Counted from the stretch's first letter, positions 10,318 through 38,564 are shown. The stretch is DNA of 64,000 nt from Planctomycetota bacterium (GCA_965223265.1 OZ244999.1:6112001-6176000), one strand, 5' to 3'. Numbers and translations are program-made. Notes: generated by a model from the sequence alone, not told the origin.

Positions 10318-12984
10318 TCACTCCCCCACGTCCACCTCGACGTGCGTCGTCTCACCGGCAGCGACCTCGGCGCTGCCGCGCCAGACGACATGGCCTCGGC
10401 TTCTCACGACGACTCGGTACTTGCCGCTTTCGATCGTCGCGGCGAAGACGCTCCAGCGCTCGCCGCTTGCGTGCGGCGGCAAGTAAAGGCGCGCTCCATC
10501 TCTTCCGCGGCTCTGGCACTCGACCTCCGCTTCCGGGAGCGGCCGGCCTTCAGCGTCCGCAACGGAAAGACGCAAGACGCCGCGGCGTTCGAGGTCGATC
10601 GAGATCGACTGCGTAGCTCTCGCCAATTCGCTAGCGACGCGAGCCTTGTCATCGACAACTTCATCGTCAACTCCCCCCTCGCCCAAGGCATCCTCCTCGC
10701 CGCCATCGATCTCAAGCTCGATCGGCGGCGCGAGCGGATACTCAAGCTCCGGCAGCACAAGCTCATAGCGTCCCGGCACCAGACCTTCGAACGTGAACCT
10801 GCCATCTTCCGAAACTCTCGTCTCGCCGCTTCGATCTGCCCCCTCGAGACGCACTTTCGACACGTTATATATAGAGGCACCTGCAATCTCCCCGCTCAGG
10901 CTCTTAAGCCCCACCACGAACTGGACTTCGGGCATCGATGTCGCTGTGATGCTCAATCGCTCGAATAACTCCCAAACAGTAGGGCCCAGAATGCTGACGA
11001 CGTAGTCCCCCGGCGCGTGGCGGAACATCAAAACGCCGTCCTCTCGGGTCTTGCCGCGAAGGAACGCGGAGCCGGCAAATTGAACGAGCCTCACGACCGG
11101 CTTGCCGGCCGGATCAACGAAGCGTGTGGGGACGACGGCCGTCGGCGCTTTGCCGAGAACGACGTTCAGCGCTTCACCTTCCCCAAGCGTTGCGGTCACG
11201 TGATGGACAAACGGATTCCCGGCGCCCTTTGGCCTCTCGATCTCGAACCTGCACTCCGCCGCGGGAAGATGCGTGAAGACGCAGACGCCTTCGGCGTTCG
11301 TCGTCTCGGAGATGGCGTCGCCTGCAAACCTGCAGGTGACCTCGACGCCTTCTTGCAGTTTGCTCTCGGGATCGTAGACGCGCACAGTCACCTCGCCGCT
11401 TGGCGGTGCCGACGGCTGAAGCCATACCGTGTTGAGTCCTTCAAGGTCGACACTCCGAAGCGATGTGCTTTCGTATCCGTACGCTGCAACGTCGAGATCG
11501 TAGGCGCCTGCTCGAAGACCGCGAAACGTGCAAAAACCTTCTGCGTTCGAAACACTTCGGATGCGCTGGTAGGTGTTCTTCTCTTCGATGCGGGTCTTGG
11601 CCATGACTGCCGCTCGTGCGATCGATTCGCCCGTGACGGCGTCCTTCAGTGCAATCTGCGCCCTCAGCCGCGACCTCAAGACGATCTCAACCTTGCGGTT
11701 CTCCCCAAGTTCAGCGCGAAAGCGAGCGCGGCTCAGCCGCGGGTACTCATCGGCATACACCCGCGCAGTGAGATCGACGCCAATGAAACGCTCCGAAAGA
11801 AAACGCAAGCGCCGCGGGTTCCTCTCTGCGAGGTTGTACGTGTCGAGACGAAGCGCGATCTCATCGCCGCGCACAAGACCTTGGTCCGGACCTGGCACCA
11901 TGCCCGGACCGTAGAGTGTGACAGTTCCGTGACGGACCGGGACGTCCTCTTCGTCAACGACGTGAAGCTCGACCGACGCGAGCACGTTCGGTGGCTTGTT
12001 CTCTTCGACCGCTGCTGTCTCACCGCTTTCAGCTTCAGGCTCGGCGGCCGCAGCAGGCCTCGGCACCGGCGGCGCTTCAACGCTGTGCGCGACGGCTGGT
12101 GTTACCTGCGCCACTGGCTCACTCGCGGCCTGTGACTCAACCGCCGTGGGCTCCGGTGCGCCTGCAACGCCCGCGCGCTGCTTCAAGTCACGCTCGACCA
12201 TGCGCCACACCGCCGTGAAGATGAGAGAAGCAAGCAGCGCCGAAACCAAAAACAGCTTTGCCGCTTGAACCGAAGCGCCCGCGGGCAGCCGCTCGCGCGG
12301 GCGATTTCTGAGAGGTACCGAGTCAGGCGCGGGCGTAGCGTCGCTCCAGCTGCGGGCGATCTGATCGAGCCGTGCGGCGAGCGCCTTCGGGACTTCCGCT
12401 GCGCTCACCTTCATCTTCTCGTAGAGCGGATGCAGCACCGCCGCGATGAGAGCGAAGCGCGCCGGACTGAGTTTTTGACGTAGTGTCTTCGTGCCGGCTG
12501 CTATGCGATAGAGTACCGTGCGCCGATTTCGGTCGATCGCTTCAGCGATGGAATCGATCGATTGCCCCTCGAGGTAGCGCCTCTCAACGCACTCGCGGTG
12601 GGCGGGAGGGAGCGACTCGATCGCTTCGTAGATCACCGCCAGATCGAGAGGTGAGAGCCCGATGGGCGAGGAGGCATTCTCCACCACGTCTGGCGCCAGA
12701 ATCTCGTAGTGCCTTCTCGCCTCGCTCCGCTTTTTCGTGCGCGCGACCGACAGCGTCAGCGATGTCACGAAGCCGAGGCCGCTGCGGATCTTGTGGTCTT
12801 GCCAGCGGCTGGCGTCGCACAGCAGCAGGAACACATCTTGCGTGACGTCCTCGGCGAGCGCGTCATCCTTCAGCACCCGCGCCGCCAACACGTAGACGTG
12901 ATCGCGCAGCTCCTCAACAACGCTGCGAAAGCGCTGGCTCGTCGGTGCTTCAAGGTAAAGTGCGAGAACGTCTTTAGATTTCAT
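10318..12984 (-). CDS. ECF sigma factor fused to a TM helix and extracytoplasmic carboxypeptidase-regulatory-like beta-sandwich repeats
   Basis: Sigma2 (LAEDVTQDVFL) and sigma4 (LPPAHRECVERRYLEGQSIDSIAEAI). TM around aa 244-260. Repeats such as SNAEGFCTFRGLRAGAYDLDV and DGRFTFEGLVPGRYEL. Confidence 0.85.
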   Translation of the reverse strand: MKSKDVLALYLEAPTSQRFRSVVEELRDHVYVLAARVLKDDALAEDVTQDVFLLLCDASRWQDHKIRSGLGFVTSLTLSVARTKKRSEARRHYEILAPDVVENASSPIGLSPLDLAVIYEAIESLPPAHRECVERRYLEGQSIDSIAEAIDRNRRTVLYRIAAGTKTLRQKLSPARFALIAAVLHPLYEKMKVSAAEVPKALAARLDQIARSWSDATPAPDSVPLRNRPRERLPAGASVQAAKLFLVSALLASLIFTAVWRMVERDLKQRAGVAGAPEPTAVESQAASEPVAQVTPAVAHSVEAPPVPRPAAAAEPEAESGETAAVEENKPPNVLASVELHVVDEEDVPVRHGTVTLYGPGMVPGPDQGLVRGDEIALRLDTYNLAERNPRRLRFLSERFIGVDLTARVYADEYPRLSRARFRAELGENRKVEIVLRSRLRAQIALKDAVTGESIARAAVMAKTRIEEKNTYQRIRSVSNAEGFCTFRGLRAGAYDLDVAAYGYESTSLRSVDLEGLNTVWLQPSAPPSGEVTVRVYDPESKLQEGVEVTCRFAGDAISETTNAEGVCVFTHLPAAECRFEIERPKGAGNPFVHHVTATLGEGEALNVVLGKAPTAVVPTRFVDPAGKPVVRLVQFAGSAFLRGKTREDGVLMFRHAPGDYVVSILGPTVWELFERLSITATSMPEVQFVVGLKSLSGEIAGASIYNVSKVRLEGADRSGETRVSEDGRFTFEGLVPGRYELVLPELEYPLAPPIELEIDGGEEDALGEGGVDDEVVDDKARVASELARATQSISIDLERRGVLRLSVADAEGRPLPEAEVECQSRGRDGARLYLPPHASGERWSVFAATIESGKYRVVVRSRGHVVWRGSAEVAAGETTHVEVDVGE

Positions 12985-13098
12985 TTCGTTCGTTTCGTTT
13001 TCACCGCCTTACGATTCGGCTTCGCTCGCGCGCTTGCTGGAGGATCGGGGCGATCGCTCCACGCCCAGTCCAAGCCGTCGAGAAGAGGGCGCGATCGA

Positions 13099-13371
13099 TC
13101 AGTTCAAAAGCGTGTAGTACAAAATCAAAGCCTGAATGATGAGTCCGAGCACGCCGAGAATGACAACGAACGCCCAGCTCACCTGGCTGCTGACCAGCCG
13201 GATGTGCTCGCGGTTCGTCACCACTTGGCTCGGGATGCTTTGGCCATTTCCGTGGATGAGCTTTCGCATCGCCTCGAGCTGCGTCTCGATTTTCGCGGCG
13301 CGCGTCTTGAGCGCCGAGACCTCGAGCGCGAGGCCGCCTTCATCGCTTTGACCGTTCATGCTGCGCGTCAT
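13099..13371 (-). CDS. Small coiled-coil protein with C-terminal TM (phage holin/XhlA-like architecture)
   Basis: Coiled coil, then IHGNG, then a C-terminal hydrophobic helix. GGAGG upstream. Confidence 0.55.
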   Translation of the reverse strand: MTRSMNGQSDEGGLALEVSALKTRAAKIETQLEAMRKLIHGNGQSIPSQVVTNREHIRLVSSQVSWAFVVILGVLGLIIQALILYYTLLN

Positions 13372-13699
13372 ACCCTTGAGTTTTCACCTCCGTCTCTCCA
13401 ATGTACTTCAAAAGGAAGAGCCGGCACCGGGCGCTATTGTGTGGTCGTCTCCCAGTGCCAACTCTTTCATGCAGGTCTACTTGTCTTTAGTGGTCGCAGT
13501 TACGTTTTTTTAGTGTTTCTTCACCTCCTTTCTCCGGGCGACCGACCCCACCTGTAGCCGGTCGCCCGAGTGACTCTGGAGCATCACTTCAATCACACCC
13601 GTGATCTCCTCGCTCCCTGCGTGCGGCTGAAAAGGTCCCGCCCTCCTCCCCGTCCCGTGCCGACGCCAGCGGTCGCCGCCGGTGTGGGACTGCACCGTT

Positions 13700-14122
13700 T
13701 CATCCGCGCCTCGCGCGCGCACCTCCAAGCTCGAACGAGCCAACCTCGGCTTCATGGATCCACGCACTGGAGCGCTCACCGGTGAGCTGCCAGATGCGAA
13801 TCGGCCGCAGGCGCCGGCGCCACCCGGCGCGTTTCACTCGCCACGGCATCGCGCTCCACTCGCGGCCGCGAAAGACGTTGCCGAGCAGCGGCCCGAGCGC
13901 CGAGCCGTCAACGCCATGCTCTTCCATCGCCGCGATGACGTCGTCGACGGTGCAGAGCCTCAGCGAGTGGCTGAGCGCACGTTCGGCGGCGACGCTTCGC
14001 GCCAAGGTCAAAAGTTCATTGGGCGCGACGGGTCGACGCGCACGAGCGCGGCGAAGCACTCGCACCTCGGGGCGCACTCTCGAGCGGCTCTGCCGGCAGG
14101 CGGTGCGCGCTTTGGACTGCAT
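13700..14122 (-). CDS. Phage-type hypothetical protein (possible wHTH)
   Basis: AAGGAG RBS. Pattern ARSVA..TVDDV..LGNVFRGREW..RPIRIWQL resembles small phage DNA-binding proteins. Confidence 0.5.
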   Translation of the reverse strand: MQSKARTACRQSRSRVRPEVRVLRRARARRPVAPNELLTLARSVAAERALSHSLRLCTVDDVIAAMEEHGVDGSALGPLLGNVFRGREWSAMPWRVKRAGWRRRLRPIRIWQLTGERSSAWIHEAEVGSFELGGARARRG

Positions 14123-14165
14123 TCTCTCACTCCTTCTCAAAGGGCCAACTGATGAAAAACTGTTC

Positions 14166-14203
14166 TCCACCTCTTAGTTGCCGCTCGAGGGAGTTAGGTG
14201 ATG
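14166..14203 (-). promoter_or_regulatory. Bipartite promoter-like motif, copy A (CATCACCT-N12-CGGCAACTAAGAGGTGGA)
   Basis: Same motif at 18722-18749 (-), 18961-18999 (+) and partially at 37474-37491 (+), each upstream of a gene in the same orientation. Confidence 0.65.
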
Positions 14204-14290
14204 TGGAAAATCGAAAAAACGCGAAAAAACTTTCCGCACGCGGTCATCGAAGCAGTTTCATGGCGTGCGAAGTGGGCAGAGAGTGGCCGC

Positions 14291-16037: not shown

Positions 16038-16786
16038 ACACAGAACCGTAGGACTCTTCAGGCCATCAGGCGACTCGCTATATCATATCCATCATTCGCC
16101 AGAACGTGCCACTTTCACCACTTGGATCACCGCTGCCGACCTCGTGCGGACCTAAAGAATTCAAGGTTTTCCACCTTTTAGTCCCGGCGAATCTACTTGT
16201 GGCTGAGCTGCGGACAGTCGTCGTCACGCTGGTTTCTGTCGACATCTATACATCTATGCACCGCCGATCAGCGCGTCGCTTAAGTTCTCCGTGACACAGA
16301 TAGCTCTGTACGCACCGCGCAGAGACACCGAACGCCATGCGATCAAGCGATGACAAATCCGACAGCGCACCAGGCCAAGCAGAACGAAGCCCTTCGAATG
16401 TTCGCTCCGCGATTCTGATCGTGATAGCGATCGTTTCTCTGTTTCTCTCGCCTCTCGATTCTTTTCCGACGTCGATTGGGTCGGGGTTTTCGTTTCATCT
16501 CCGTCGAGTATTGCATGTGCTTTTGGTCTGGTTTGGATCATGCTCAAGGTCGTTGCGGCTTCCTCGAACGGAATCATCAAACCCCGCCCGCGGGACATTT
16601 TTGACGGCGCCGTATGTTTGGTTGGATCGACCATGTGGTGGGGGTTGGTCTTTCCGACGTAGAGACGTTCCCTCGATGAACGAGGCACCGCCGTACTCCT
16701 CACCATGCGATCACAACCCCCTTTGCGGTTCGGGGAAACACGGCAACGCAACGGGCAAAGTCCTTGTCCGGGGGTAGAATGCACGC

Positions 16787-18330: not shown

Positions 18331-18579
18331 TCAACTGCGCGCCCGACATCGCCTCAGCGCGATGTATCGCCGCACCTCCTCCGGCTCGAAGAGGAGTCTG
18401 CGCTCGGAGCGGATCACCGCAAGCTCGCCTCGCCGAATGCGCCGCCAAAGCGTCGTCTTCGAGACGCGCAGAATCTCGCACACCTCTGTTGAGCGCAGGA
18501 GCGGCTCGATCTTCTCTCCGGCTACCGCGCCGCCGGCGAGCGACTTCAGCGTCCGCCTCTCCATGTCGTTCGTTCCCAT
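18331..18579 (-). CDS. Excisionase/AlpA-like HTH DNA-binding protein
   Basis: LLRSTEVCEILRVSKTTLWRRIRRGEL..RLLF; GGAGG RBS. Confidence 0.85.
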   Translation of the reverse strand: MGTNDMERRTLKSLAGGAVAGEKIEPLLRSTEVCEILRVSKTTLWRRIRRGELAVIRSERRLLFEPEEVRRYIALRRCRARS

Positions 18580-18721: not shown

Positions 18722-18749
18722 AGTTGCCGCAAACTGGCGTTAGGTGATG
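18722..18749 (-). promoter_or_regulatory. Bipartite promoter-like motif, copy B
   Basis: rc reads CATCACCT-AACGCCAGTTTG-CGGCAACT upstream of the HTH gene. Confidence 0.6.
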
Positions 18750-18960
18750 CGAAAAATCGAGAAAATGTGAACCTCTTTGAACCGCCCTGCGATTCCTCGT
18801 CCGCACCGCACGCTGCGCGGTCCGCCCTCGCACTCGCCGCGGCTCGCTGTGCTCGCCACTCACCTCGAGTCGCTCGGGAGAACTCAACGCGACTCGGGCG
18901 GCCTTGAGCGGACTCAAAAGTCGACTTCACCAGCGCATTCGAAAATTTTTCCAGAATTCA

Positions 18961-18999
18961 CATCACCTCAGGGGCTACTTCCGGCAACTAAGAGGTGGA
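18961..18999 (+). promoter_or_regulatory. Bipartite promoter-like motif, copy C
   Basis: CATCACCT-N13-CGGCAACTAAGAGGTGGA just upstream of the likely primase-helicase start. Confidence 0.65.
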
Positions 19000-19029
19000 G
19001 AATCTTTTTCTCTGCACGCTCGTGAACCC

Positions 19030-21645
19030 ATGACGTGCAGAAAGCTCGCCTCAGCAGATTGTGGAGGAGACCCTTTGGTTCAATCTTCCCCTGAAAAACT
19101 ACTGGCGCACCACGCCAGACGCATCCGCGAATCCGCCGTCGCCGACGAAGTCGCCGCAGCGCGTGGCTACCGCTCCGTCGAGGTCCGCGCCGAGCTCAGA
19201 CGACTCGGCTTCAGCGAGCGACAAGCGCGCACCCCAGCGCTTCTCGTACCCATCTACGACGTTCACGGCGAGGTCGCCACCTACCAAATCCGCCCCGACA
19301 CGCCGCGGGTCGACCGAAACGGTAAGAGCGTCAAGTACGAGACGATCGCCGGCGCCCGCATGGTCCTCGATGTGCCGCGGCCCGTGCGTCGCTGGCTCGG
19401 CGATCCAGCGCGGCCGCTCTTCGTGACCGAAGGAGCACGCAAGGCCGACTCGGCAGTCTCGCAGGGGCTCTGCTCGATCGCACTCCTGGGCGTGTGGAAC
19501 TTTCGCGGCACCAACGAGCAAGGTGGCAAATGCGCACTGGCGGATTGGGAGTCGATCGCGCTCAAAGGACGCAAGGTGTACGTCGCGTTCGACAGCGACG
19601 TCATGGAAAAGCAAGCAGTGCATGCGGCGCTGGCGCGACTGAAGGGATTTCTCGAGTCGCGCCAGGCGAACGTCCGGCTGATCTACCTGCCGCCAGGGGA
19701 CGCCGGCGAGAAGGTTGGACTCGATGACTACTTCGCAGCTGGCGGTACGACGAGCGAGCTCCTCACCTTCGCCGAGACGGAGCTGAGGGGCGGCGCATTC
19801 ACCGCCGAGACCTACAGCGCCACCGAGGATGGGCTTGTGTGGAATCGCGTGCTTCGCGATGAAATCTCGCCGGTGCCGCTGGCGAACTTTGTCGCCACGA
19901 TCGTTCGCGACATTGAGATCGATGATGGTGCCCAGCCGCGGCGCGAGTTCGAACTGAGCGCGCGCCTCGGGAGTGAAGAGCGCAGATTCACCGTGCCCGT
20001 GGCTCGCTTTCGCAGCCTCGACTGGGCGAGCGAGCACCTCGGCGCCAAGGCGATCATCTATCCCGGCGAAGGCAAGCGCGATCACACGCGCTGCGCCGTG
20101 CAGACCTTGAGTGAAGAGGTGGAAGCGGCGAAGGTCTTTGCGCACACCGGTTGGCGGGCGGTAGGCGGCGAGCAGCTCTATCTCCACGCCGGTGGCGCGA
20201 TCGGTGCAGCGGGCATGTGCGCAGACGTTCGCGTGGAGCTCGAAAGCGCACTTGAAAACTACTCGCTCCCCGAGCCGCCGTGCGGCGCGGAGTTGACCGC
20301 GTTCGTGCGCGCGAGCATCTCATTCCTCGACGTCGCACCGCGCCGCGTCACGCTGCCTCTTCTTGCGGCCACCTACCGCGCCGTTCTCGGCGACGTTCGC
20401 GTCAGTCTCCATCTCGCCGGGCAGAGCGGGGCCGGCAAGACGGAGCTTGCGGCAGTAGCGCAGCAGCACTTCGGCGCCGCCATGGATGCGTCGAGCCTGC
20501 CGGGGAGCTGGTCGAGTACGGCGAACTCGCTCGAACGCGTGGCGTTCACTGCCAAGGACGCGCTCCTCGTCGTCGATGACTTTTGTCCGATCGGCAGTCA
20601 TCAGGACATCACGCGCCTGCACGGCAGTGCGGATCGGCTCTTCAGAGCGCAGGGGAATCGCTCGGGCAGGCAGCGACTGCGCGCCGATGGTGAAGTCATT
20701 CGGGCGCGGCCGCCGCGCGGACTGATCGTCTCGACCGGTGAGGACATACCGCGCGGCGAGAGTCTCCGTGCGCGCATGGTCATCGTCGAGATCGGGCGAG
20801 GCGACGTTGACTGGAGGGCGCTCACAGAAGCCCAAGGCGCCGCGCGCAGCGGAGAGCTTGCTGGTTCGATGGCTGCGTTCATTTCCTGGCTCGCGCCGCA
20901 GCGAGACGAGATGCGAGACGTGCTCGAGCGAGAGGTCGTGCGGCTGCGCGCCGAACTGGCGGAGAGCCCGCGTGCGCACAAGCGATCGCTCGGCAACTTT
21001 GCGAGCCTCCTCGCCGGTTGGAACATCTTTCTTTGGTTCGCGGTGGGTGCCGATGCCATCGACGGCAGTGCCGCAACGAAGCTCGGGGACGAGGCGAAGA
21101 ACGTCTTCCTGGAGCTCGGCCGCGAGCAGACCGAGCACGAGCGTGCAGAAGATGCGACCGAGCGCTTCTTCGCACTCCTCGGCGCGGCGATCGCGGCGGG
21201 CCAAGCGCACGTCGCCTCGGTCGACGGCACCCCACCGGACGACCCGCTCGCCTGGGGCTGGCGAAGCGCGTCCGGCGACGACCAGCGCGCACCGCTCTGG
21301 CAACCGCAGGGCGATCGCATCGGTTGGCTGGGATCGGAGGGCGACCTGCTGCTCCAGCCAGAGGCGGCGTACTCCATGGTGCAAAAGCTCGCGGCAACCG
21401 TCGGTGGAACGGTCGGCGTTGGGATGCGGACGCTTCAGCGACGGCTGGAGGAGAGAGGGCTTCTGCGGCGAGTCGATGCAGGCCGCACCACGGTGCGGGT
21501 GACGCTGCAGGGGGTGAAGCGGCGGGTATTGTGCGTGGCGTGTGAGATGGTAGGCGGGAGCGGAGGGGATTCGGGCGGCACACGCTCTGCGAGAAGTCTC
21601 GCCGAGAAGGGCCGCCGGGAATCGGTGCAGCGTTTCTTGTGGTAG
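19030..21645 (+). CDS. TOPRIM primase (DUF3854-like) fused to a P-loop helicase (DUF927/Cch-like); replication protein of a mobile element
   Basis: TOPRIM motifs LFVTEGARKADS, YVAFDSD, KVGLDDY; Walker A GQSGAGKT; Walker B LLVVDDF. Start uncertain (ATG 19030 or TTG 19075; ORF open from 18904). Confidence 0.85.
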   Translation: MTCRKLASADCGGDPLVQSSPEKLLAHHARRIRESAVADEVAAARGYRSVEVRAELRRLGFSERQARTPALLVPIYDVHGEVATYQIRPDTPRVDRNGKSVKYETIAGARMVLDVPRPVRRWLGDPARPLFVTEGARKADSAVSQGLCSIALLGVWNFRGTNEQGGKCALADWESIALKGRKVYVAFDSDVMEKQAVHAALARLKGFLESRQANVRLIYLPPGDAGEKVGLDDYFAAGGTTSELLTFAETELRGGAFTAETYSATEDGLVWNRVLRDEISPVPLANFVATIVRDIEIDDGAQPRREFELSARLGSEERRFTVPVARFRSLDWASEHLGAKAIIYPGEGKRDHTRCAVQTLSEEVEAAKVFAHTGWRAVGGEQLYLHAGGAIGAAGMCADVRVELESALENYSLPEPPCGAELTAFVRASISFLDVAPRRVTLPLLAATYRAVLGDVRVSLHLAGQSGAGKTELAAVAQQHFGAAMDASSLPGSWSSTANSLERVAFTAKDALLVVDDFCPIGSHQDITRLHGSADRLFRAQGNRSGRQRLRADGEVIRARPPRGLIVSTGEDIPRGESLRARMVIVEIGRGDVDWRALTEAQGAARSGELAGSMAAFISWLAPQRDEMRDVLEREVVRLRAELAESPRAHKRSLGNFASLLAGWNIFLWFAVGADAIDGSAATKLGDEAKNVFLELGREQTEHERAEDATERFFALLGAAIAAGQAHVASVDGTPPDDPLAWGWRSASGDDQRAPLWQPQGDRIGWLGSEGDLLLQPEAAYSMVQKLAATVGGTVGVGMRTLQRRLEERGLLRRVDAGRTTVRVTLQGVKRRVLCVACEMVGGSGGDSGGTRSARSLAEKGRRESVQRFLW

Positions 21646-24008: not shown

Positions 24009-24159
24009 CACATCCCACGTCGCCATCACGGAAAAGCGGGAGAGGCCGGGAGGGAGCACGAGAGACGCAGTGCCCGTTGAAAACTCGAAGGTTCCAGCCA
24101 GTTCGGATGATTGTACCGTCTGCGCCGCACCGTCTTCGGAAAACACACGGAGTTGTATC

Positions 24160-24801
24160 CTTCTAAGTCCTGCTTCGCGATCAGGAGTTGCTGCACCAGC
24201 AATGAGCAGCTCGCGAATAGCACCCGTCGTCCCTGCTGGACCAATTCTTGGGCGATCGCGCAAAGCAGATGAGTTTTGCCGCTGCCGGGGTTACCGAATG
24301 CCAGGACGTTCTCTGTACGATCGAGGAAGTTCCCTTCCAGGATGAAGGGGCTGGGGATGACGTAGGGCGAGGCGACGCTATGAATCCTCGGCAACCGCCG
24401 ACGTCACTCGGTGCGCCATCTGCGAGGAGACGGTGACGGTAGTTTTCTTCTTCGCATCCTGCGTTGCGTTGCGAAGGGTGCCACCTGCCGCAGTGCCGGT
24501 CAGTATCGCGGGGAGTGTCGGAGGATTCCCCACCGCATCTCGAGGTTCCAGCAGACAGCAGAACCTTTTGGCGGTTCTTCAAGAACTCCGTTTCGACTTG
24601 GTATGTCGAAATCACCCGGTCTCTGACCTGCATTAGACGTTCCAGCGTTCCAGCAGAGTCAACGTAGCCTCGTTCCTCGCACGGTAGGAATCGAGGAAGA
24701 TATTGGCAACCTTCTCCCCCCGGGGGGGAGAAGGTCACGACCTACCGGTCGTGACGTAATTTCTAGTTGTCGTCAGAGAAAGAAATAGTTGACGCCGGCC
24801 A
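24160..24801 (-). pseudogene. Internally deleted IS21 element (IstB ATPase fragment + IS end)
   Basis: ENVLAFGNPGSGKTHLLCAIAQELVQQGRRVLFASCSLLVQQLLIAK is IstB-like. The end segment 24767-24794 matches MITE end 23974-24001 at 27/28 nt. Confidence 0.75.
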
Positions 24802-27880: not shown

Positions 27881-27896
27881 ACGAAGGGAGTTGGGC

Positions 27897-27995
27897 TCAG
27901 CTCGCTTCGCTTTCGGCGAGGTGACGATAGAGGGTCGATCGCGACACGCCGAGTGTCCGGCACACCTCGGCGACTGACGTATCCCGGTCTCGACG
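27897..27995 (-). pseudogene. Serine resolvase C-terminal HTH remnant
   Basis: [25 protein letters not shown] is a resolvase-type HTH, truncated by the adjacent IS. Confidence 0.65.
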
Positions 27996-27999
27996 AAGG

Positions 28000-29142
28000 G
28001 CGACAGCCAGCCCGTTCGATTGACCGATGACGAGCGTCGACGACTCGCGCGGAGAGGCAAGGCCATCGGCAGGCGGGTCCTCGATGAAGTCGCAAGCATA
28101 GTTACGCCCGACACCATCCTGGGTTGGCATCGCAGGCTTATCGCCAGGAAGTGGGACTACAGCAAACGACGCCGGAAGGTCGGGAGACCTCGGGTGGACG
28201 TAGCGATCCCGCGGCTCGTTGTTCGTATGGCGCGCGAGAACACGACCTGGGGCTACACGCGGATACGTGGTGCGCTGAGTCATCTCGGCCATCAGGTCTC
28301 GCGTGGCACAATCGCCAAGATCCTCAAGGACAACGGGATAGAGCCTGCTTTCGAACGCCGCAAACGCACGCCGTGGCGAACGTTTCTCGAACGCTCATTG
28401 GGAGACGCTCGCCGCCGCGGACTTCTTCACTGTGGAGGTCGCTCGGCCCACTGGGTTGGTCACTTACTACATTCTTTTCGTCATCGAACTCTCGACGCGC
28501 CGCGTTCACGTCGGAGGCATCACGCCGGCACCGGACGCACAATTCATGAAGAAGGTCGGACGTAGTCTTACCGATGGCTTCGACGGCTTCCTGCTCGAGA
28601 AGCGCTACCTTATCCTCGACCGCGACAGCAAGTACACCGACGACTTCCGGCGGCTTCTCGAGGACTCCGGCACCAACACTGTTCGCCTGCCCGCGGGACG
28701 TCCGAACCTGAACGCCTTCGCTGAGCGGTTCGTCCTCTCGATCAAGAGCGAGTGCCTCGACCGCATGATCTTCTTCACCGAGGGCGCGCTGCGGCGTGCA
28801 GTTCGATCCTTCGTCGATCACTATCACGCGGAGCGGAGTCACCAGGGACTCGGCAATCAACTCATCGAGCCCGGTGACGTCGCCACCGATCCAATTGGTC
28901 GAGTCCGTTGTAACAAACGACTCGGTGGCTTGCTTCGTTACTACCATCGACGCACTGCGTAGGGGTGGGGCCGGCCCGCAAATGTCGAGTCCGATGCTGC
29001 GACCTGGGCAGTTGCACTACGGACAGCGTTCGACGACGTTGCAGATTCAGAGAACCTGGTCGACTTTCGTTCGAAATTTGCGATTGCCGAGTGTGGTCAA
29101 TTCGTTGGCTTTGCACGTCGTTCTAGTTTTTGGACAGCACGC
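28000..29142 (+). pseudogene. rve/integrase-core IS transposase, 5'-truncated and frameshifted near 28390
   Basis: [29 protein letters not shown] in one frame; [44 protein letters not shown] in another. End-like TTTTTGGACAGCACG near 29127-29141. Confidence 0.8.
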
Positions 29143-29245: not shown

Positions 29246-30602
29246 CTACGAGGACCGAATGTCCTTGGCATAGGGGAGGGTTCGCCTCTCAGTGCTCATG
29301 AGAGTGGAGATATCAGACTCCGGGATCTTGATGCGGTCGTCCTCGTAGAGCAAGAATCCCCTAATGATCTCGCGGTATTGCTGATTGCGGCTGAATAGAG
29401 CCAAGAACCGAATCGTAGCCTTCCGTCCGAGCTGTTGTTCCAAGTACTCCTGTGCCTTGGAAATAGTCTGTCCAGACGCGACTATGTCGTCGACGAGCAA
29501 CACCTCCAAAGACCGAGGGTTCGAAGCTTCGATGGCCGAGAGAAGCGCGTTGTTAACCGGGCTTTGAAACATCTCCAGAGGCTTGCTCCGGTTCGCCCAC
29601 AAGGAGAGAATCGGGGTCTTTTGAAAGAGTTCGCGTCCCAAGAGATCGGCGACGACAAGCCCCCCGTTGCTTATCCCAAGGACGACGTCTGGAACGTAGT
29701 TCGCGTCTATTACGTAGTCTTTGAGCCGCTTGACCACCGACTGAAGTCGCGCCCAGAACTCCCTCCACGGCATAACGCCAATAGGTCCAGCAAGTTCTTC
29801 GTGCGTGGACTCGTAAACGCCCGGAATTCGGACTTCCATATCCGGAAAGACGTCATAGACAAGACTGTCGCGAGGCTGCGTTCGCCCCGTGAACTCGTTG
29901 TATATTACATCCGCAAGCTCTTTGGCAGCCACGTCGAATGCCAACTTGTCATATGAAATCGCCCGATAGGCTGTGATATCGAATGGGATGCGAAAGGTTC
30001 GCCTTTCGCAAAAGAACTGTCGTCGACCTCCTGATCCCGTATCTCATTCCCAACTCAAAAAAAACGTTGGGGTTCATTCCCGTGATGTCGGTTATTGCAA
30101 TATCCGCGCTCGCAGTTCGCCGAACAATGTCTGCTGTGATCGAGCCGGTCGTTCGATTGTCAACCTCGCGCGTGACCACGATCGATCGACCGAGGCGTTC
30201 CTGAACTTGCTCCATCCCGCTGCAGATTATGTGTGTGTAAACGAAGTCCGCCTCCCGTACGCCCTCGTCATACTCGTCGTTCGCACCCGACGGCATGATG
30301 ACAAATGCCTCAAGTGGCTTCGTGTTCGTCGAAACGTCTTGGGCTTCTGATCTCGCCGTCTGCGGTCGTTGCTCTTGATCGGTCGAGCTTGGCGAGGGTT
30401 CCTCTTGCTCTGTGCGCGGAGCCGCGCCGCGCCTTCTCCTTCTGTTCGTTACCTCAGTCGTCCGCTTCTTCTTGCTCGTACCGGCTTTGGTCGCACGCGA
30501 CCGCTTCCTTTGGCCGTTGGCTCCTTCGGTCTCGCGTGCGCGTTTCTTCGAGGCACTCGCGGCTTTTGTCACACGAGATCCCGCATTGGTACCCTTGACC
30601 AT
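29246..30602 (-). pseudogene. Nucleoside 2-deoxyribosyltransferase(NDT)/TIR-like domain fused to a type I phosphoribosyltransferase, split by a +1 frameshift near 30000
   Basis: NDT motifs AFVIMP, ADIAITDITGMNPNVFFELG. The canonical tail IPFDITAYRAISY lies in the PRTase frame. PRTase motifs VLGISNGG, VLLVDDIVASGQT. Confidence 0.75.
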
Positions 30603-30919
30603 GGTGTGCTCCTTTCGGTCGCGACAGTCGAGGACGTATCAGTGTACCCCGTTGCCGAAGCGCAAAACAAGCGGCGCATTTTCTCCTTCTCTTCTTGGTT
30701 TCTTGCCTACCTGTTTGCCCTGACATTCTCATTGATGTGGTGGGGGTGCGGGCCGGGCGGTGAACGTTCTATCCTCTGAACCCCAGTGGTTCACAAGCGC
30801 ACACGTATCCTGAACCTCCCGAGCTGGGCTCCGCTTTCTGCGTGACTGGTGATCACGATGGGGATAGAGGGGCTCTGGGCTCCCCGCGCGAATCTCGATC
30901 TCATGTCTTCAGTTCGTTA

Positions 30920-31728
30920 GTTCGATTAGCCAGGGTGCCAGCAAGAACACGATCGCCACGTACAAGCGGCGCCTTCCTCTGCTGACGCAGCATCTCAACA
31001 GGAGCCACGGTGAGGAGATCACGAGTGCCGATCTCCCCGACTTCCTGTACGCGGTTCGGCTGAAGGCTGATGGCACTCCGAAGAACCAGAGGACGATCAA
31101 CTCGATCAAGACTGCCCTGAAGTCGTTCTTCAAGTCGCTGGGCCTCCAGGACAACCGCTGAGGATCTTCGGATCAAGCGGGTCCGTATCGAGCGTGACTA
31201 CATCACCGAGGACGAAGTTCGAGTGCTCCTCGCTGGCGTCGACAACGTCCGTGATCGGACAATCCTTGCTGTCCTGTGCTTCCTCTGCCTTCGTCGTGAA
31301 GAGCTCGTCGAACTCAAGGTCGTCGATGTTCAGGGACCGTCGCTTCGGATTTTCGGCAAGGGCGGAGTCGAAAGAAATTCCCGATCAGCACTGCAGTCCG
31401 GGCGCACCTCGATCAGCTGTTTCGCTGGAAGGAGGAACGCGGGGGTCACTCGATCCCACCGCCCCTCTGTTCGTCAGGCCGAAAGAGGAATCCGCTGTCC
31501 GAGTCGCAACTCTACAACGTCGCCCGCAAGTGGACTTACGAGCTTCTCGACAAGGAACTCTACCCGCACGCCCTGAGGCACACGTTCGCCTCCATGCTCG
31601 TCGCCAAGGACGTCAACCTCGCGACGATCCGGCGCCTGATGCGACACGCTTCGGTCAGCATGACCGAGGTCTACCTCCACATTTCGAACGAGCTGAAGGT
31701 GGAGGCCGTCGAGAGTCTTGCGGTGTGA
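30920..31728 (+). pseudogene. Tyrosine recombinase (XerC/D-like) with several frameshifts
   Basis: Pieces TINSIKTALKSFF / RDRTILAVL..LRREELV..GKGG / YPHALRHTFASML..LMRHASVSMTEVYLH. Confidence 0.85.
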
Positions 31729-31977: not shown

Positions 31978-32001
31978 GTTCGAACCCCGCCTGTACCGCC
32001 A
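31978..32001 (+). other. tRNA 3'-end-like fragment (att-site relic; Asp-like geometry)
   Basis: G-TTCGAAC-CCCGC-CTGTACC-G-CCA matches T-loop, 5-nt T-stem strand, 7-nt acceptor strand, discriminator and CCA. Confidence 0.45.
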
Positions 32002-32332
32002 GGGTTTCTGGTAAACCACTGCTCATCGAGCATCGTCCCCTCATTCCGACAATTCGACTCCCCACCATCGCCGCTTGTGTATAATATGCGGGCTGTTTCG
32101 ACGCTGGCAGTTTCCAGGTTGGCACCTCACAGCATCGGATCTCAGGTGAACGGTTTCGGTACCGCGGGGTACAGGGAGATCGGAGAGTGGACTGACCGCA
32201 CCGCGCCGGGTCGCGCCTGGGTTCTGGCCCGGCTTGCGACGAACCCAGTAGAGAAACATGATAGGCTGGATCTGCCGATCCATGACTACGAGGACTCGAT
32301 ACCAGTTCAAGTTGGGTCTTGACGAGGTGGCT

Positions 32333-35146
32333 ATGCAGGCAGCAGTGTTCGACCTCGACGGTGTAATCGTAGACAGTGAACGCATTCACTCGCGAGCATT
32401 CGAAACAGTGTTGCGCGGTTATATTACCGAGCTGCCCTCTGGGAAAAGAGGACTGATTCACGAGATTGGTATAAGCGAAAAGGAAAACTGGCGTCAATTG
32501 GTGAGAGATTACCAGTTGGACGTGGACGTTGACGAGTTAGTCCAGGAACGGCGCAAAATTTACCCGGACCTGATGCGCGAAGCGGAATTGCTGCCTGGGG
32601 TGCGGGAACTGCTGATGGAGATTATAGGCCAGGATGTCGCACTCGCGATTGCTTCGTCCACGTCTCTCGAAAACATAGAGACCGTGTTGAAGACGCACGA
32701 GCTTCGCACGTTCTTTGACGCCATCGTATCAGCAGACCAAGTATCGAGCGGGAAGCCGGATCCAAAGATCTATCTCGAGGCCGCGCAAAGACTGAACGCT
32801 TCTCCGCAGCTATGTGTCGCGTTCGAAGATTCCGCTACTGGAGTACGTGCGGCTGTCGAGGCAGGTATGTTTGTCGTAGCCGTCCCAGTTTACGTATCTG
32901 AGAATGACGTCGAAGAGGCCGACGTTGTGCTCAAGTCGCTGAAAGGTGTCCGGTGGGGAGATCTGTGTGAAAAGGCTCGCTTCTCGGGAGTTCTGAACCG
33001 AAAGGAGACCCCCTTTCTCGTGGCTCCGTACGCTAAGAGAGTTGGGCAGGAGTTCGTCTTCGCAGTCCAGCGGAGGAAAAAGACACCACGAGTTTTCGTC
33101 GTCGGGGATACCCCTTGGGATCAGTTTTGGATTGGCCGCCCCGCGCAAACCTATCAGTCACACAGCAAGAGTGGTCTGGAGTATCCGCAATTGCGGATTT
33201 CCGAGAAGACCAAGCAGTACGGTCGGCCGGGTACCGTTTTCGCCGTAGCGAAAGTTCTTCGGGAGTTCGGTGCGGAGGTCGTCGTCCTTACATGGACAGG
33301 ACACGATGACCACGGAGAGAGTATTAGGCGTGAGTACATCGACCTCGGCGTCAAATTGGTCGATATTCGGCTCGACTGTCCGACCTGCGTGCACCATTTC
33401 ATTTTGAGAGCGGTCCCGGGTGAGACGAGGGACGGCGGAGGTCTCGAAGTGATCTTGCGGATGAACTATGAAGATGAGGCGGTCGGAGTTCGTTTTCAGG
33501 GCAATGGGTCCTCCGCCGACTGGAAGCCGCGTGTGTGCGCTGCCCTGCAGAGCAGTGACTACGTAGTGATCAACGACATTCATCGAGGAACACTGTCGTG
33601 GATCGCGGATAGTGGATCAGCCGATTCGTCCGAGGCGCTTCAACTGATTCGCGAGCAGTACGACCATCTGGGATACGATCGCCCTGTCACTATTTTGGAC
33701 GTGCGAAAGTCACTCACACCCTATGCGTCGTTGCCCATCGACGTTCTTGCCGCCTCGGGCTACGAAATCGCGGGTTTTTTGAATCCGAGATGGATTCAGC
33801 GGTCCGACATAGACGATGTCGCTGGATACGGACTCGATGAAGAGGAGTTTATCAAGCTGATCGAGCGTTTCCCACAGATCGGTATGGTATCTTTGACGCG
33901 CGGTTGGAAGGGGGTGCAGCTCGGAGTGAAAACTAACCGCGGTATGATTTGTGTGTCGGACATCGAGGCATTCACTTCAGAGTCCCAGAGCGTTACCCCG
34001 CACGCTGGCGACTTCTTCGACGCTGGTCTTGTTCTCGGCCATTGGACCTCACAGCGATTCCAAGACGCCGTACTTCTCGCTCAGACGCTGGCGAGTTGTC
34101 AGGTTGAGTTTGGAGGGGTCGAGATTGTCAATTTCGAGACGGCTCTTTCCCAACTCGAGAACAACGTGTTTCCGCGCAAAGACTCCCGAGTGATTAGCAA
34201 ATTCGAGATCGAGGAGTCACGGTCAAACCGAGTTCTCGCTGTGTTGGAGCATGTTCGAAGCGAGTCGGTGATCGACCTCGAGCGAAACCAACTAGGGAAC
34301 CTGTTTGCATGCTTTCATCTCGGTGAGATGTATAGACGACTGAAGACGCTTACCCAGTCTTATGGAGAAGGGGAGAAGACGTTGTTAGTGGTGTCTGGGG
34401 AAACCGGCGCGTGCAAGACTGACTTCGCGCAGGCTCTCGGAGTAGAGATCCTTGCGAGCCGAGAATTGACGCTGGAACAGGCGAAAATCGCTGTGGTTGA
34501 CAAGTGCACCAAGAAATGGTCCGACGTGTTCGGTGATCCCGATCCTCGCGAATCTCTCTCCCAGATGTTGAGCGAGACGGCCGAATACGGCGTGTTACTC
34601 ATCGATGAATTCCGAGAGAATCAAGAAGCTGGGCAGGCTCTTCTCGAACTGATCGATTCCCCAAAGTTTTTCGGCAAAGCAAAGTTGATCGTCGTCGGCT
34701 CAGCACTGGTGGGAATGTCCAAGGCGAGCGAGAACCCCTGGGCGGACCTCGTAAGCCGAGCGCACGATTTTGTTGAGATGCCGGCGTGGAAAGGCGACGC
34801 AATCGAAGACTTTCCGTATTGGTTTGCGAAAGCGTGCGAGTGGAGTCTTGCAGACGGCCAACCAGGACTGAAACCGGAGATTCAGTTAACGGTGGAACTG
34901 AGTGCATTGCACCATCTGATGATTCAATTCGAGGCAATCGAGAACGCGGTGAAGAAAAAGAACTATCGCGTGCTGGATACCCTGCTGTCGCCGGACGGAG
35001 TCCAGTGGCGAAACGGCTTGACTCTCAAAGCAGTACGACAATTCACAGAACGATTGGGGATTCCGAGTCCCTCGGCTTCGGTCGAACCGCCGTCCGGATT
35101 CTCCGTACGTGTACCCGTCCGACTTCCGCCGCCGAACTCAGCGTAG
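32333..35146 (+). CDS. HAD phosphatase - PfkB/RfaE-like kinase - sigma54-activator-like AAA+ fusion protein
   Basis: HAD: AVFDLDGVIVDSE, IASST, GKPDPKIY, FEDSATG. PfkB: VVGD, SLTRGWKG, HAGDFFDAG. AAA+: SGETGACKT, VLLIDEF, ADLVSR, NYRVL. GAGGTGG RBS before ATG 32333. Confidence 0.8.
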   Translation: MQAAVFDLDGVIVDSERIHSRAFETVLRGYITELPSGKRGLIHEIGISEKENWRQLVRDYQLDVDVDELVQERRKIYPDLMREAELLPGVRELLMEIIGQDVALAIASSTSLENIETVLKTHELRTFFDAIVSADQVSSGKPDPKIYLEAAQRLNASPQLCVAFEDSATGVRAAVEAGMFVVAVPVYVSENDVEEADVVLKSLKGVRWGDLCEKARFSGVLNRKETPFLVAPYAKRVGQEFVFAVQRRKKTPRVFVVGDTPWDQFWIGRPAQTYQSHSKSGLEYPQLRISEKTKQYGRPGTVFAVAKVLREFGAEVVVLTWTGHDDHGESIRREYIDLGVKLVDIRLDCPTCVHHFILRAVPGETRDGGGLEVILRMNYEDEAVGVRFQGNGSSADWKPRVCAALQSSDYVVINDIHRGTLSWIADSGSADSSEALQLIREQYDHLGYDRPVTILDVRKSLTPYASLPIDVLAASGYEIAGFLNPRWIQRSDIDDVAGYGLDEEEFIKLIERFPQIGMVSLTRGWKGVQLGVKTNRGMICVSDIEAFTSESQSVTPHAGDFFDAGLVLGHWTSQRFQDAVLLAQTLASCQVEFGGVEIVNFETALSQLENNVFPRKDSRVISKFEIEESRSNRVLAVLEHVRSESVIDLERNQLGNLFACFHLGEMYRRLKTLTQSYGEGEKTLLVVSGETGACKTDFAQALGVEILASRELTLEQAKIAVVDKCTKKWSDVFGDPDPRESLSQMLSETAEYGVLLIDEFRENQEAGQALLELIDSPKFFGKAKLIVVGSALVGMSKASENPWADLVSRAHDFVEMPAWKGDAIEDFPYWFAKACEWSLADGQPGLKPEIQLTVELSALHHLMIQFEAIENAVKKKNYRVLDTLLSPDGVQWRNGLTLKAVRQFTERLGIPSPSASVEPPSGFSVRVPVRLPPPNSA

Positions 35147-35563
35147 AAGAATGTCGGTGAGTTGATCACGGTTCTACCGCGCAGCATCTGACTTTTCGTA
35201 AGCCTCCGACCGTCCACGTGGCCTGATGTTGTGTTGCCAGCGCACACGACGATCGTATACCGGTATACGAAACGATACAAAATCACCGTGAATCGAGCAC
35301 GATTGTTGCAACCAGGGGTGCATCGAGGTACATTGCTACGCAACGAGTTGCGACTTCCAAGCAAGCCCTCTGAGAGTCTTACAAGGTGGAAGTTCCCAGT
35401 TCGAGTCTGGGCATGTCCACCACCGATAAACGGCCCCGCAACAGGTTGTTGCGGGGCTCTTCCTTTGATAGCGCGAGCGGCTGCATGAGTCCACGCACTG
35501 GGTTCACTCAACGAAGCAGCGCAAGAGCACGCTACTGATCGTCGACCCCACGCGCCCTACGAA

Positions 35564-35749
35564 CTATTCCCTCGTCGCCGCCGCCAGGATCAACCGCCGC
35601 ATCCACTCCGCCACGGTGAGTCCCTCGCGCTCGGCGACGCGCGTGATCAATCGGTGCTCCGCATCGGTGACGCGAAGGTTGACGATCTTGCCTTTGTACT
35701 TTGATCTCGCGATCTTGGGTCGTCCTCTTTTCTTCTTTTTCTTTGTCAT
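35564..35749 (-). CDS. Ribbon-helix-helix protein with AT-hook-like N-terminus (MobC/CopG-like)
   Basis: KRGRPK, then IVNLRVTDAEHRLITRVAEREGLTVAEWMR. AT-rich upstream region. Confidence 0.75.
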   Translation of the reverse strand: MTKKKKKRGRPKIARSKYKGKIVNLRVTDAEHRLITRVAEREGLTVAEWMRRLILAAATRE

Positions 35750-36122
35750 TATTAGATTCTATAGTAAAGTTTCTGATGTACAAAATATTTTGTTGAAATA
35801 TGTTCGTTAGAACTTAAAGTTATAGTAGTGCAGTTGATCGTGCGCTGAAGAGATGCTCGCGGTGATTGATCCGTGCTTTCTCTTCTTCGCACACTGACGT
35901 GTGAGCGTCGGCGGCACAGTGGGATGCTTCTTCGGAAGAGCGCAGATGTGGTTCGTTTGCCCTTCTCGACGAAGCCAGCATCACGCAGTGCTGCGCGTGC
36001 TCAACTGCGACCACAACGGCGTTCTCCTTGGACGGTCCGGGAGAACAAGAAAGCGGAGCTCCGCCAAACGTCTTGGCGGACAAGCAGAGCTCCAATCACC
36101 ACCACCTTTTCAGGAGGCAGCT

Positions 36123-37127: not shown

Positions 37128-37473
37128 CCACGCCCTTGGCGACGGCCACATGAACTGAGAGCTGCGCGTGGTGAGCCGGAGCACCACGCGCCCTCTCCCC
37201 CGGCGCTGCGCGCTGCTGGTGGCGAGGCCGCATCCGCGGGCGTAGCGCAGCGGCGTCTGAGCGAACGACGCCTCGCGGCGTTCGCGGCTCGCCGCGGAGC
37301 GAAGACCGAGGACGGCCCGAGCCGCCAGCGGCGCGCAGCGCCGGGGGAGAGGGCGCTCGTTCGTCGTTCAACCCATCTCGTTTGATCAACTGGGTTTCGC
37401 TCTGACCCACTCGGCTACCAATCGTCACGTCGAAAAAAACTTCCCAGATTCCGTTTCGCACATCCGCCGTTTG

Positions 37474-37491
37474 CGGCAACTAAGAGGTGGA
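37474..37491 (+). promoter_or_regulatory. Promoter-like motif, copy D (CGGCAACTAAGAGGTGGA)
   Basis: 18-nt exact match to copies A and C; upstream box diverged. Confidence 0.55.
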
Positions 37492-37588
37492 AGCGTGCAT
37501 CGCGCACGCTCGCGTCACTCTTTCGACACTCTCTCGCACTCTTCAGGAGGCTTCTTTGCTCAGCGTACCTTTTCCGACCCGCTCGCTC

Positions 37589-38032
37589 ATGACAATCTCC
37601 GTGACGCTCACGGCGCTGCTCTTCATCGCCATCTCCGCTTCATGCATCTCGCTCTTTCGACCCGCGGCCCGGAGCCCCCACCAGCTCCATCGACCCGACG
37701 GCACCACCGTCGTCTGCTATGAACCGCCGGCCGAGGTCGTGCCTAGCGCCGTGAGAGCGCGAATCGACGCCAAGATTCCCGACGTCATCGAGGTCCTCGA
37801 AGCGCAGCTTGAGATCGAGGAGACGTTCGTTCGCATCCGCTCGGAGGTTCACAATCTGCAGGCTGTCGAAGCGCTCGAGTTTCGTCTCTGCGCCGCCTGG
37901 GCACAGGGGGTTCTCAGTGAGGAGCTCTACCGCGAGTTCCTGTTTGAGGTGTTGCCGCTTCTGCGAGAAGCGTGTCGCGACGAAGACGCGACGGCAACGA
38001 CGGTGCTGTTCGTGGAGGGTTCAGAACGGTGA
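37589..38032 (+). CDS. Hypothetical exported/lipoprotein
   Basis: Hydrophobic leader ending ISASC. Start uncertain (GTG 37487 possible). Confidence 0.5.
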   Translation: MTISVTLTALLFIAISASCISLFRPAARSPHQLHRPDGTTVVCYEPPAEVVPSAVRARIDAKIPDVIEVLEAQLEIEETFVRIRSEVHNLQAVEALEFRLCAAWAQGVLSEELYREFLFEVLPLLREACRDEDATATTVLFVEGSER

Positions 38033-38301
38033 CTACCCAGCACAACGACGCGCAAATCGAACTTCCCGACGCTTTCCGGCTCTTCTCCGTGCAGCAAGTC
38101 GCTCACATTCTGCAGGTGCGCGAATCCGTCGTTCGCAAACTCATCTTCGAGGGCAAGCTCAGCGCCACCCGCGTTGGCGTGCTGATCCGTGTGTCGCAAG
38201 CTGCCCTCGAACGATTTCTCGTAGAAAACCCCTGCACTGCGCCGGACGCGCGCCGAGATCCCTGGCGGCATCGACGGGCACTCACCAAGCGCACGAAATA
38301 G
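38029..38301 (+). CDS. Excisionase-like HTH protein
   Basis: LFSVQQVAHILQVRESVVRKLIFEGKLSATRVGVLIRV; GTGA overlap with the upstream gene. Confidence 0.8.
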   Translation: MTTQHNDAQIELPDAFRLFSVQQVAHILQVRESVVRKLIFEGKLSATRVGVLIRVSQAALERFLVENPCTAPDARRDPWRHRRALTKRTK

Positions 38302-38558: not shown

Positions 38559-38564
38559 AGCGAT

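Follow-up and report, generated by a model that had tools for sequence, protein, structure and literature searches.

A promoter-like cassette before four transcription units of a multi-copy planctomycete element core, one of which encodes a predicted membrane-tethered sigma hybrid

The 64-kb stretch of DNA analysed here (the whole of it is hereafter called the window) comes from a Planctomycetota bacterium (GCA_965223265.1, OZ244999.1:6112001-6176000), has a G+C content of 0.591 and belongs to a contig of at least 9.18 Mb (9,179,496 bp). Between positions 10318 and 38301 it holds four transcription units, A to D, which encode an extracytoplasmic function (ECF)-type sigma factor joined to a transmembrane (TM) segment and an ectodomain, two helix-turn-helix (HTH) proteins of the HTH_17 family, a primase-helicase and three smaller proteins, and in front of each unit lies a complete or partial copy of one short bipartite sequence. 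An earlier note, made from the sequence alone, had read this span as a mobile element that carries its own sigma factor and could use it to switch on excision and replication after an envelope signal.

Four units and a repeated core

Unit A, on the minus strand, consists of the genes of a 140-amino-acid (aa), arginine-rich protein that matches no family (P0274, 13700-14122), of an 86-aa protein with a C-terminal hydrophobic helix (P0288, 13099-13359) and of the 888-aa ECF-type sigma hybrid (P0121, 10318-12984), and unit B, likewise on the minus strand, is the gene of an 82-aa DNA-binding protein of the HTH_17/excisionase family (P0276, here HTH82, 18331-18579). Unit C, on the plus strand, encodes the 856-aa primase-helicase (P0124, 19075-21645), in which DUF3854 (Toprim-like) is combined with DUF927 and which starts with the TTG at 19075, preceded by GGAGGAG. 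Unit D, also on the plus strand, encodes a 158-aa protein with an N-terminal hydrophobic helix (P0283, 37556-38032) and a second HTH_17/excisionase-family protein of 90 aa (P0286 or HTH2, 38029-38301), the gene of which overlaps the stop of the 158-aa gene and lies 264 nt from the 3' end of a tRNA-Pro(TGG) gene (38565-38642, minus strand, 3' end toward the element). The gene identities that had been proposed, namely sigma r2/r4 with CarboxypepD_reg, two HTH_17 proteins, a DUF3854-DUF927 primase-helicase and tRNA-Pro, are all borne out.

Copy number was determined by exact protein look-ups, single-copy meaning single at the 90% cluster level, for seven genes from the motif-led units and seven elsewhere (five further queries were, with the starts chosen, not in the collection). 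Six of the seven genes behind the sites turned out to be multi-copy on the one 9,179,496-bp contig, as opposed to none of the seven elsewhere, and this multi-copy status of the genes behind the four sites is a new observation of the present analysis. Two copies each are found of the sigma hybrid (the second being P0122, with 890 aa), the 140-aa protein (93.6% identical), the 86-aa protein and HTH82 (97.6% identical), and three copies each of the primase (856, 847 and, in truncated form, 485 aa) and the 158-aa protein, HTH2 being the one single-copy gene tested in the motif-led units. The genes that are single-copy outside these units are o9646 (downstream of the sigma gene), a HEAT-repeat gene, a DUF5677 gene, a 157-aa gene at 27138, a TIR-like gene, the gene of the 334-aa protein P0287 at 36123 and a 61-aa gene at 35564.

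Since all genes of the sigma operon are multi-copy like most of the other motif-led genes, the operon is part of the repeated core, and the sole sigma gene within this core is the one that sits behind site A. The three primase copies diverge past residue ~822-829, so that the repeated segment has one of its borders near nt 21,550. The G+C content of the three core modules is 0.60-0.66 (0.61-0.63 in the sigma operon and 0.63-0.66 in the primase module), whereas that of the intervening DNA is 0.55-0.59.

The bipartite cassette

When the two boxes CATCACCT and CGGCAACT are allowed to stand 10 to 15 nt apart (CATCACCT-N{10,15}-CGGCAACT), the pair has exactly three matches in the window, at 14176-14203 (minus), 18722-18749 (minus) and 18961-18989 (plus), with observed spacers of 12-13 nt, and none in 100 dinucleotide-preserving shuffles of the window (0 expected). 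The oriented copies that the earlier note had reported before units A, B and C are thereby confirmed, and all three are intergenic. Taken singly the boxes are less remarkable, with seven occurrences of CATCACCT against 1.35 expected and six of CGGCAACT against 2.6 expected, the latter count being reached in 6 of the 100 shuffles, and the signal therefore resides in their combination. Furthermore the 21-mer CGGCAACTAAGAGGTGGAGAA is found exactly at site A (14163-14183, minus) and at site C (18982-19002, plus), and with three mismatches at site D (37474-37494, plus), none being expected by chance in either case.

In alignment the four sites have a block of ~60 bp in common, made up of an A/T-rich tract, the first box, a spacer of 12-13 nt and the second box, and in A, C and D the second box is followed by AAGAGGTGGA. 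Site A (14163-14232, minus) consists of the A/T tract, CATCACCT (14196-14203), a 12-nt spacer, CGGCAACT (14176-14183) and AAGAGGTGGAGAA, and site C (18932-19002, plus) has the same parts with a 13-nt spacer (CATCACCT at 18961-18968, CGGCAACT at 18982-18989, then AAGAGGTGGAGAA). Site B (18722-18778, minus), which is divergent from C and 211 nt apart from it, has the A/T tract and both boxes separated by 12 nt (CATCACCT at 18742-18749, CGGCAACT at 18722-18729), and its downstream extension has diverged. Site D (37425-37494, plus) has the A/T tract, a degenerate first box TTTCGCAC (37454-37461) that agrees with CATCACCT at 3 of 8 positions, CGGCAACT (37474-37481) and AAGAGGTGGAAGC, and the notion that the motif is only partly kept here is in agreement with these findings, the second box being retained and CGGCAACTAAGAGGTGGA being present.

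What is invariant in all four sites is the block (T/G)(T/A)(G/C)CGGCAACT. All sites are intergenic and each is oriented toward the next gene, with 53 (A), 142 (B), 85 (C) and 74 nt (D) between CGGCAACT and the start codon, and the 29-nt A/T-rich tract upstream of each has a G+C content of 0.31-0.45 as compared with 0.591 for the window. From the end of CACC to CAACT there are 16-17 nt as read from the sequence, a distance within the range of the sigma-70 family.

A position-weight scan gives the four sites 29-36 bits and the next best matches 20.3 and 17.2 bits. The first of these, at 8683 (minus), is within an open reading frame (ORF), and the second, CCGGGACTAAAAGGTGGAAAAC at 16166-16193 (minus), is found ~130 nt ahead of the HEAT-repeat gene, itself single-copy, and is possibly a fifth copy of the cassette in decayed or degenerate form. 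As had also been stated previously, the host part of the window contains no full copy: with three mismatches allowed it yields three more matches (45423 plus, 47320 minus and 63673 minus), each of which needs all three, and since ORF maps place all of them inside coding frames we take them as chance, the expectation at three mismatches being ~0.5 matches per spacing.

Other kinds of signal fit the sites poorly. A consensus scan finds no sigma-70-type hexamer pair at any of the four, and a sigma-70 reading was rejected on that ground; a sigma-54 reading is contradicted by the absence of GG-N10-GC from the sites as read from the sequence; and when GGCAAC is taken as a -35 element with a -10 element 16-17 nt downstream, no downstream box is kept in all four. 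Structured RNA was likewise rejected, the folds of the four sites having no common structure (z-scores -1.8 to +1.1), and Rfam matched only the tRNA and nothing at the cassette sites. We can conclude that the motif is a non-chance, oriented, bipartite and promoter-like cassette which within the window is confined to the element, and that it is almost certainly the mark of units which are transcribed in coordination and belong to the repeated core of an element.

The sigma hybrid and the readings of the cassette

In the AlphaFold2 model of P0121 (mean predicted local distance difference test score 78.9) sigma2 (residues 6-96) and sigma4 (112-171) have a disordered linker between them and are followed by three further helices (174-216), one long hydrophobic TM helix at ~240-271 (Kyte-Doolittle maximum 2.12 at residue 241), a disordered Pro/Ala-rich stretch (272-335) and tandem beta-sandwich repeats (336-888, ~550 residues), an ectodomain that resembles the tandem Ig-like stalks of adhesins and pilins. 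Pfam finds Sigma70_r4_2 with 33 bits against a cut-off of 25.7 as well as three CarboxypepD_reg stretches, the nearest Atlas clusters are all sigma r2/r4, and the region 2.2 residues A44, D46, Q49 and F52 are invariant or nearly so in the family. With sigma2 and sigma4 only, and with recognisable regions 2 and 4, P0121 has the domain content of an ECF (group 4) sigma factor, although no named ECF group can be assigned, as the sequence is too distant and all 35 NCBIfam matches are below their cut-offs. The one-component protein of sigma factor, TM segment and extracytoplasmic repeats that had been proposed is thus intact in domain searches and model alike, and by prediction P0121 is an intact sigma-TM-ectodomain hybrid.

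The two sigma paralogs are 92.9% identical overall, with 2 differences in the 180 residues of the sigma domain (98.9%), an identical TM segment (100%), and 83 and 92% identity in linker and ectodomain respectively. Such a pattern would fit selection on the part that binds DNA and RNA polymerase, and both copies would be expected to read the same promoters. A HMMER search with residues 1-270 gives 5643 relatives at E<=1e-3, dominated by sigma proteins, the nearest being 34-43% identical and mostly long; 25 of the 30 nearest relatives scanned are sigma-CarboxypepD_reg fusions of 500-1400 aa, and in a profile search, which gave 42 matches, all five that bear an organism name are from Planctomycetota. 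Since most of the nearest relatives share the layout and sigma/anti-sigma hybrids have been published, the hybrid is a member of a known planctomycete architecture and not a new kind.

Fused sigma/anti-sigma hybrids are proteolytically activated, as shown experimentally for IutY, and in SCO4117 a TM helix is combined with a Pro-rich region and a carbohydrate-binding domain, according to the passages on these proteins in PMC8999054. As described there, IutY of Pseudomonas putida (ECF243) and SCO4117 of Streptomyces coelicolor (ECF52) have, like P0121, an N-terminal sigma2-sigma4 part, a membrane segment and an extracytoplasmic C-terminal sensor. P0121 is however unlike ECF52 in that the ZAS-type HxxxCxxC zinc finger is not present in its linker (none occurs in residues 1-300), and whereas the known hybrids are encoded on the chromosome and regulate iron uptake or development, the gene of P0121 is found in a mobile-element core. 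Pinto et al. 2020 (PMC7671368) furthermore describe how ECFs are present by the dozen in planctomycete genomes, carry C-terminal extensions that are long and variable, and have been duplicated within single genomes, and P0121 agrees with the ECFs of the relevant passages in architecture and taxon. In those passages, however, the sigma core is duplicated with unrelated extensions and without conserved context, whereas the P0121 gene has been duplicated whole, including its extension, along with replication and regulator genes and the shared cassette. A group with CarboxypepD_reg extensions was also sought in passages of the supplement of PMC7826278, and these concerned only ECF54 neighbours.

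The reading that we prefer, tentatively and with slightly less than an even chance of its being right, is that the element's own membrane-tethered sigma drives the four units. Sites A-D would then be copies of one ~60-bp promoter cassette that heads four core transcription units and comprises an UP-like A/T tract, a -35-like CATCACCT, a 12-13-nt gap, a -10-like CGGCAACT and the start region AAGAGGTGGAGAA, the whole residing in the core of a multi-copy integrative, plasmid-like element. The cassette would be read by the ECF-type sigma of the element itself, which its own post-sigma4 helices and TM segment would keep inactive at the membrane. A signal at the beta-sandwich ectodomain would release the sigma, the likely means being regulated proteolysis after the example of IutY or SCO4117, and the freed sigma would amplify itself through site A and turn on the HTH_17 regulator, the replication gene and unit D.

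An alternative sigma is argued for by the lack of sigma-70 hexamers at the sites, whereas the region upstream of the host tRNA-Pro contains TTGACG-N18-AAGATT, a sigma-70-like promoter unlike the cassette. Site A heads the sigma operon with its boxes at a fitting distance of 16-17 nt, which is the layout expected if the sigma gene is autoregulated, as ECFs often are, but the usual AAC/CGT cores are absent. A more far-reaching version of the own-sigma reading, which we regard as unlikely, is that the adhesin-like ectodomain senses a surface event such as a helper phage, envelope damage or a surface glycan, and that the freed sigma fires every core promoter as well as those of the sister copies; replication would in this case be triggered by an external event, with neither a repressor nor an SOS circuit involved.

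Several facts weigh against control by the element's own sigma. AAC (-35) and CGT (-10) cores are common in ECF promoters, and ECF sigmas usually need both boxes. The cassette boxes lack these cores, which do precede the two host ECF genes of the window, the upstream regions of the latter having GGAAC/GCAAC ... CGTC-type words unlike the element cassette. Moreover, site D is without a -35 box, as only 3 of 8 positions match, site B is without the downstream extension, and the invariant (T/G)(T/A)(G/C)CGGCAACT could equally be a regulator site, given two HTH_17 proteins in the same units. P0121 itself scores 22.2 bits with Pfam Sigma70_r2, under the cut-off of 24, and 37.3 bits with NCBIfam TIGR02937 (sigma70-ECF) against a cut-off of 42.9. 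The scan for host copies of the motif spans 64 kb of the contig, and the link between sigma and motif we infer from the layout.

The comparison with related loci does not support the link either. Among 77 loci from one genome-contig scan with the primase (at most 60% primase identity, the genome of the window not being among them) the primase is present in 77, a sigma ortholog in none and HTH2 in one, and the cassette motif is found at none of them; nor were recurrent words found upstream in these loci. Sigma-CarboxypepD_reg fusions do occur 6-8 kb from the DUF3854 primase in two of the five annotated planctomycete loci, namely in L040 (1616-5580), where an 898-aa fusion stands beside a tyrosine integrase, and in L011 (11930-18941), where a 1250-aa fusion is near a serine recombinase. 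These fusions are only 27-29% identical to the window sigma, and ECF genes of a generic kind occur at high density in genomes of this sort, the 36 kb of host DNA in the window alone holding two. A likeness between the sigma-upstream and the pre-primase region of L040 failed on alignment.

Next after the own-sigma reading ranks one that we find possible but rather doubtful, according to which the cassette is a promoter/operator for host RNA polymerase with a host sigma, possibly a host ECF, together with the element's HTH_17 proteins as activator or repressor, the sigma hybrid being a further regulated cargo gene instead of the regulator. It is suggested by the fact that only CGGCAACT and its left flank are invariant in the four sites, by the extension of A, C and D into AAGAGGTGGA, as would be seen if a protein-binding site overlapped the start region, and by the short inverted repeat CACCT/AGGTG in A and C, although this repeat is not found in B and D. 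The HTH_17 genes in units B and D, the HTH_17 genes directly upstream of the primase in the related loci L002 and L010 (by Pfam) and L040 (by reading), and the two more ECF-type sigma genes in the host part of the window likewise agree with it. However, there are no sigma-70-like hexamers at the right distance, the host ECF upstream regions differ, and the co-duplication of the sigma gene with the core and its possession of the same cassette would be left unexplained.

A still less probable explanation, and in our opinion a poor one, is that the repeat is not a promoter but a 5' leader (a Shine-Dalgarno-like stabiliser with an anti-Shine-Dalgarno-like partner), a recombination or replication site, or a duplicated small repeat. 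AAGAGGTGGAG is indeed Shine-Dalgarno-like and pairs in the predicted fold of site C with CATCACCT, which we take to resemble the 3' end of 16S rRNA, and the 21 identical bases in A and C could be due to recent copying. Against this, the sites have no common fold and no Rfam match, there are no iterons between B and C, orientation and gene distance are consistent in four of four sites, and the A/T tract fits a promoter better. Finally, it is very unlikely that the sigma operon is an ordinary host cluster beside a decayed island, the motif being a local segmental duplication without regulatory meaning, for although planctomycete ECFs are abundant, have long extensions and are duplicated within genomes (passages of PMC7671368), HEAT and FGE-sulfatase genes stand between the operon and the HTH-primase pair, and the island contains insertion sequence (IS) debris and an integrase pseudogene, the three operon genes are duplicated like the HTH gene and the primase while o9646 and HEAT are not, and the G+C content of the operon is near that of the primase module and unlike the 0.56-0.58 of the intervening DNA.

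The element, its surroundings and its meaning

The set of HTH_17 protein, primase and recombinase is, as judged from gene content, a signature of integrative, plasmid- or satellite-like elements. The primase family is very large, with 1296 matches among 8000 candidates scored at ~50% identity and from many phyla, and seven of nine annotated related loci have tyrosine or serine recombinases near the primase, several of them DNA methylases as well. Plasmid and phage collections gave only distant partial primase matches (at most 53% query coverage and 39% identity). In L011 a large imperfect inverted repeat rich in CTCCAC/GTGGAG (7585-7805), directly upstream of its primase, may be an origin, and this word is not enriched across 34 loci.

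The window copy has its own primase-helicase, is present in multiple copies on the contig and lies at a tRNA gene. It shares with P4-like and phage-inducible chromosomal island (PICI)-like satellites and with integrated plasmids an HTH_17 gene by the primase-helicase, the position at a tRNA, defence-like cargo and multiple copies, and it differs from them in that no intact integrase, att repeats, capsid or packaging genes were found in it. HTH and primase genes are furthermore divergent in the window whereas they are co-directional in L002, L010 and L040. To our knowledge a sigma operon together with a four-fold promoter cassette is not known from these satellite and integrated-plasmid families.

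A recombinase search with Pfam, NCBIfam and PHROGs, which covered 1-40 kb of the window, found no intact integrase there. What it contains is a tyrosine-recombinase pseudogene (30868-31725, plus) with a SAM-like N-domain (30868-31158, Pfam E 1.7e-7) and a catalytic C-part (31300-31725, E 3e-14) in different frames, and no repeat of at least 13 nt of the region 38481-38700 occurs elsewhere in the window. The proposed control of excision is not supported, since the name excisionase rests solely on the HTH_17/TIGR01764 domain and no intact integrase accompanies it. Nor can 10318-38301 be upheld as one satellite or integrative and mobilizable element, for the span is a mosaic with HEAT/FGE genes, IS debris, defence-like cargo and single-copy genes, and rather than one compact satellite the window copy seems to be a decayed, or at any rate a mosaic, element.

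Among the other genes of the span, a pair at 29246-30602 (minus) may be defence cargo and encodes a PRTase-domain protein with a weak ShosT match and a 217-aa TIR-like protein, the C-terminal half of which matches a TIR effector model (7e-10) in addition to PHROG families of unknown function. A gene that runs off the window edge (1-3213, minus) encodes a large protein of over 1071 aa with a SIR2-like region that matches the PADLOC SIR2, pAgo-associated and ThsA models (best 1.4e-13). IS material lies at 3379-4767 (minus), 6744-7946 (minus), 24026-24394 (minus) and 27978-28962 (plus) and comprises a DDE transposase, an ISKra4-family transposase just below cut-off, an IstB ATPase fragment and HTH_21 and rve_3 pieces.

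The sequence at 35385-35422 (plus) resembles a tRNA T-arm and acceptor 3' end with CCA, followed by a hairpin, and may be the remnant of an old attachment site, though it has no Rfam match and is therefore not confirmed. At 35564-35830 a 61-aa lysine-rich protein without Pfam match is encoded on the minus strand behind an A/T-rich stretch of ~90 bp (35740-35830). P0287 (36123-37127, plus) matches no family; in the Atlas it is closest to clusters of hypothetical viral proteins (0.96), there are weak leads to the Rad52 and Sak single-strand annealing proteins (0.87-0.88), and it has a helix that we presume to resemble the Rad52 signature. In a 962-aa fusion at 32258-35146 (plus) a HAD hydrolase is joined to a PfkB-like kinase, and the C-terminal third has no assignment. 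The host ECF sigma genes are at 55310-57261 (minus) and 46731-47483 (plus), one of them being paired with a zf-HC2/FecR anti-sigma.

A related published system is DdvS/DdvA of Myxococcus xanthus, an envelope-spanning ECF module over an accessory island for which proteolytic release has been proposed (PMC11506125). In the passages on this module, an ECF sigma and a transmembrane anti-sigma are two proteins with a CHAT-type periplasmic domain, whereas the window has one polypeptide, and its regulon is a CBASS-CRISPR defence island, whereas here the replication genes of a mobile element would be concerned. In a literature search of limited extent we found no case of this kind for ECF sigmas on integrative or mobile elements. 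Of the suggestion that the locus is a new system, one part has to be given up, the sigma architecture being known from most of its relatives, and one part stands, in that the sigma operon and the cassette are within the repeated core. Even if the link to the sigma is true, the locus would be a new variant in which a sigma/anti-sigma hybrid is combined with an integrative element of the HTH_17-primase type, both of them known kinds, and would not be categorically new.

Mobile elements are known to be induced by way of repressors, SOS signals, helper-phage proteins and quorum signals. Without the sigma link, the locus would come down to the core of an element whose genes are co-regulated in an ordinary way. 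If the link is true, the induction logic would be a different one, with an envelope-spanning, one-polypeptide sigma and its target promoter before the replication gene, and would amount to a direct outside-in control over the activity of the element, in a system that is compact, with four promoters and a sigma domain of ~175 aa. It would furthermore assign a function to one of the planctomycete ECFs with long extracytoplasmic extensions, which form a large and uncharacterised class, and it would suggest carriage on mobile elements as a route by which sigma genes are multiplied within genomes.

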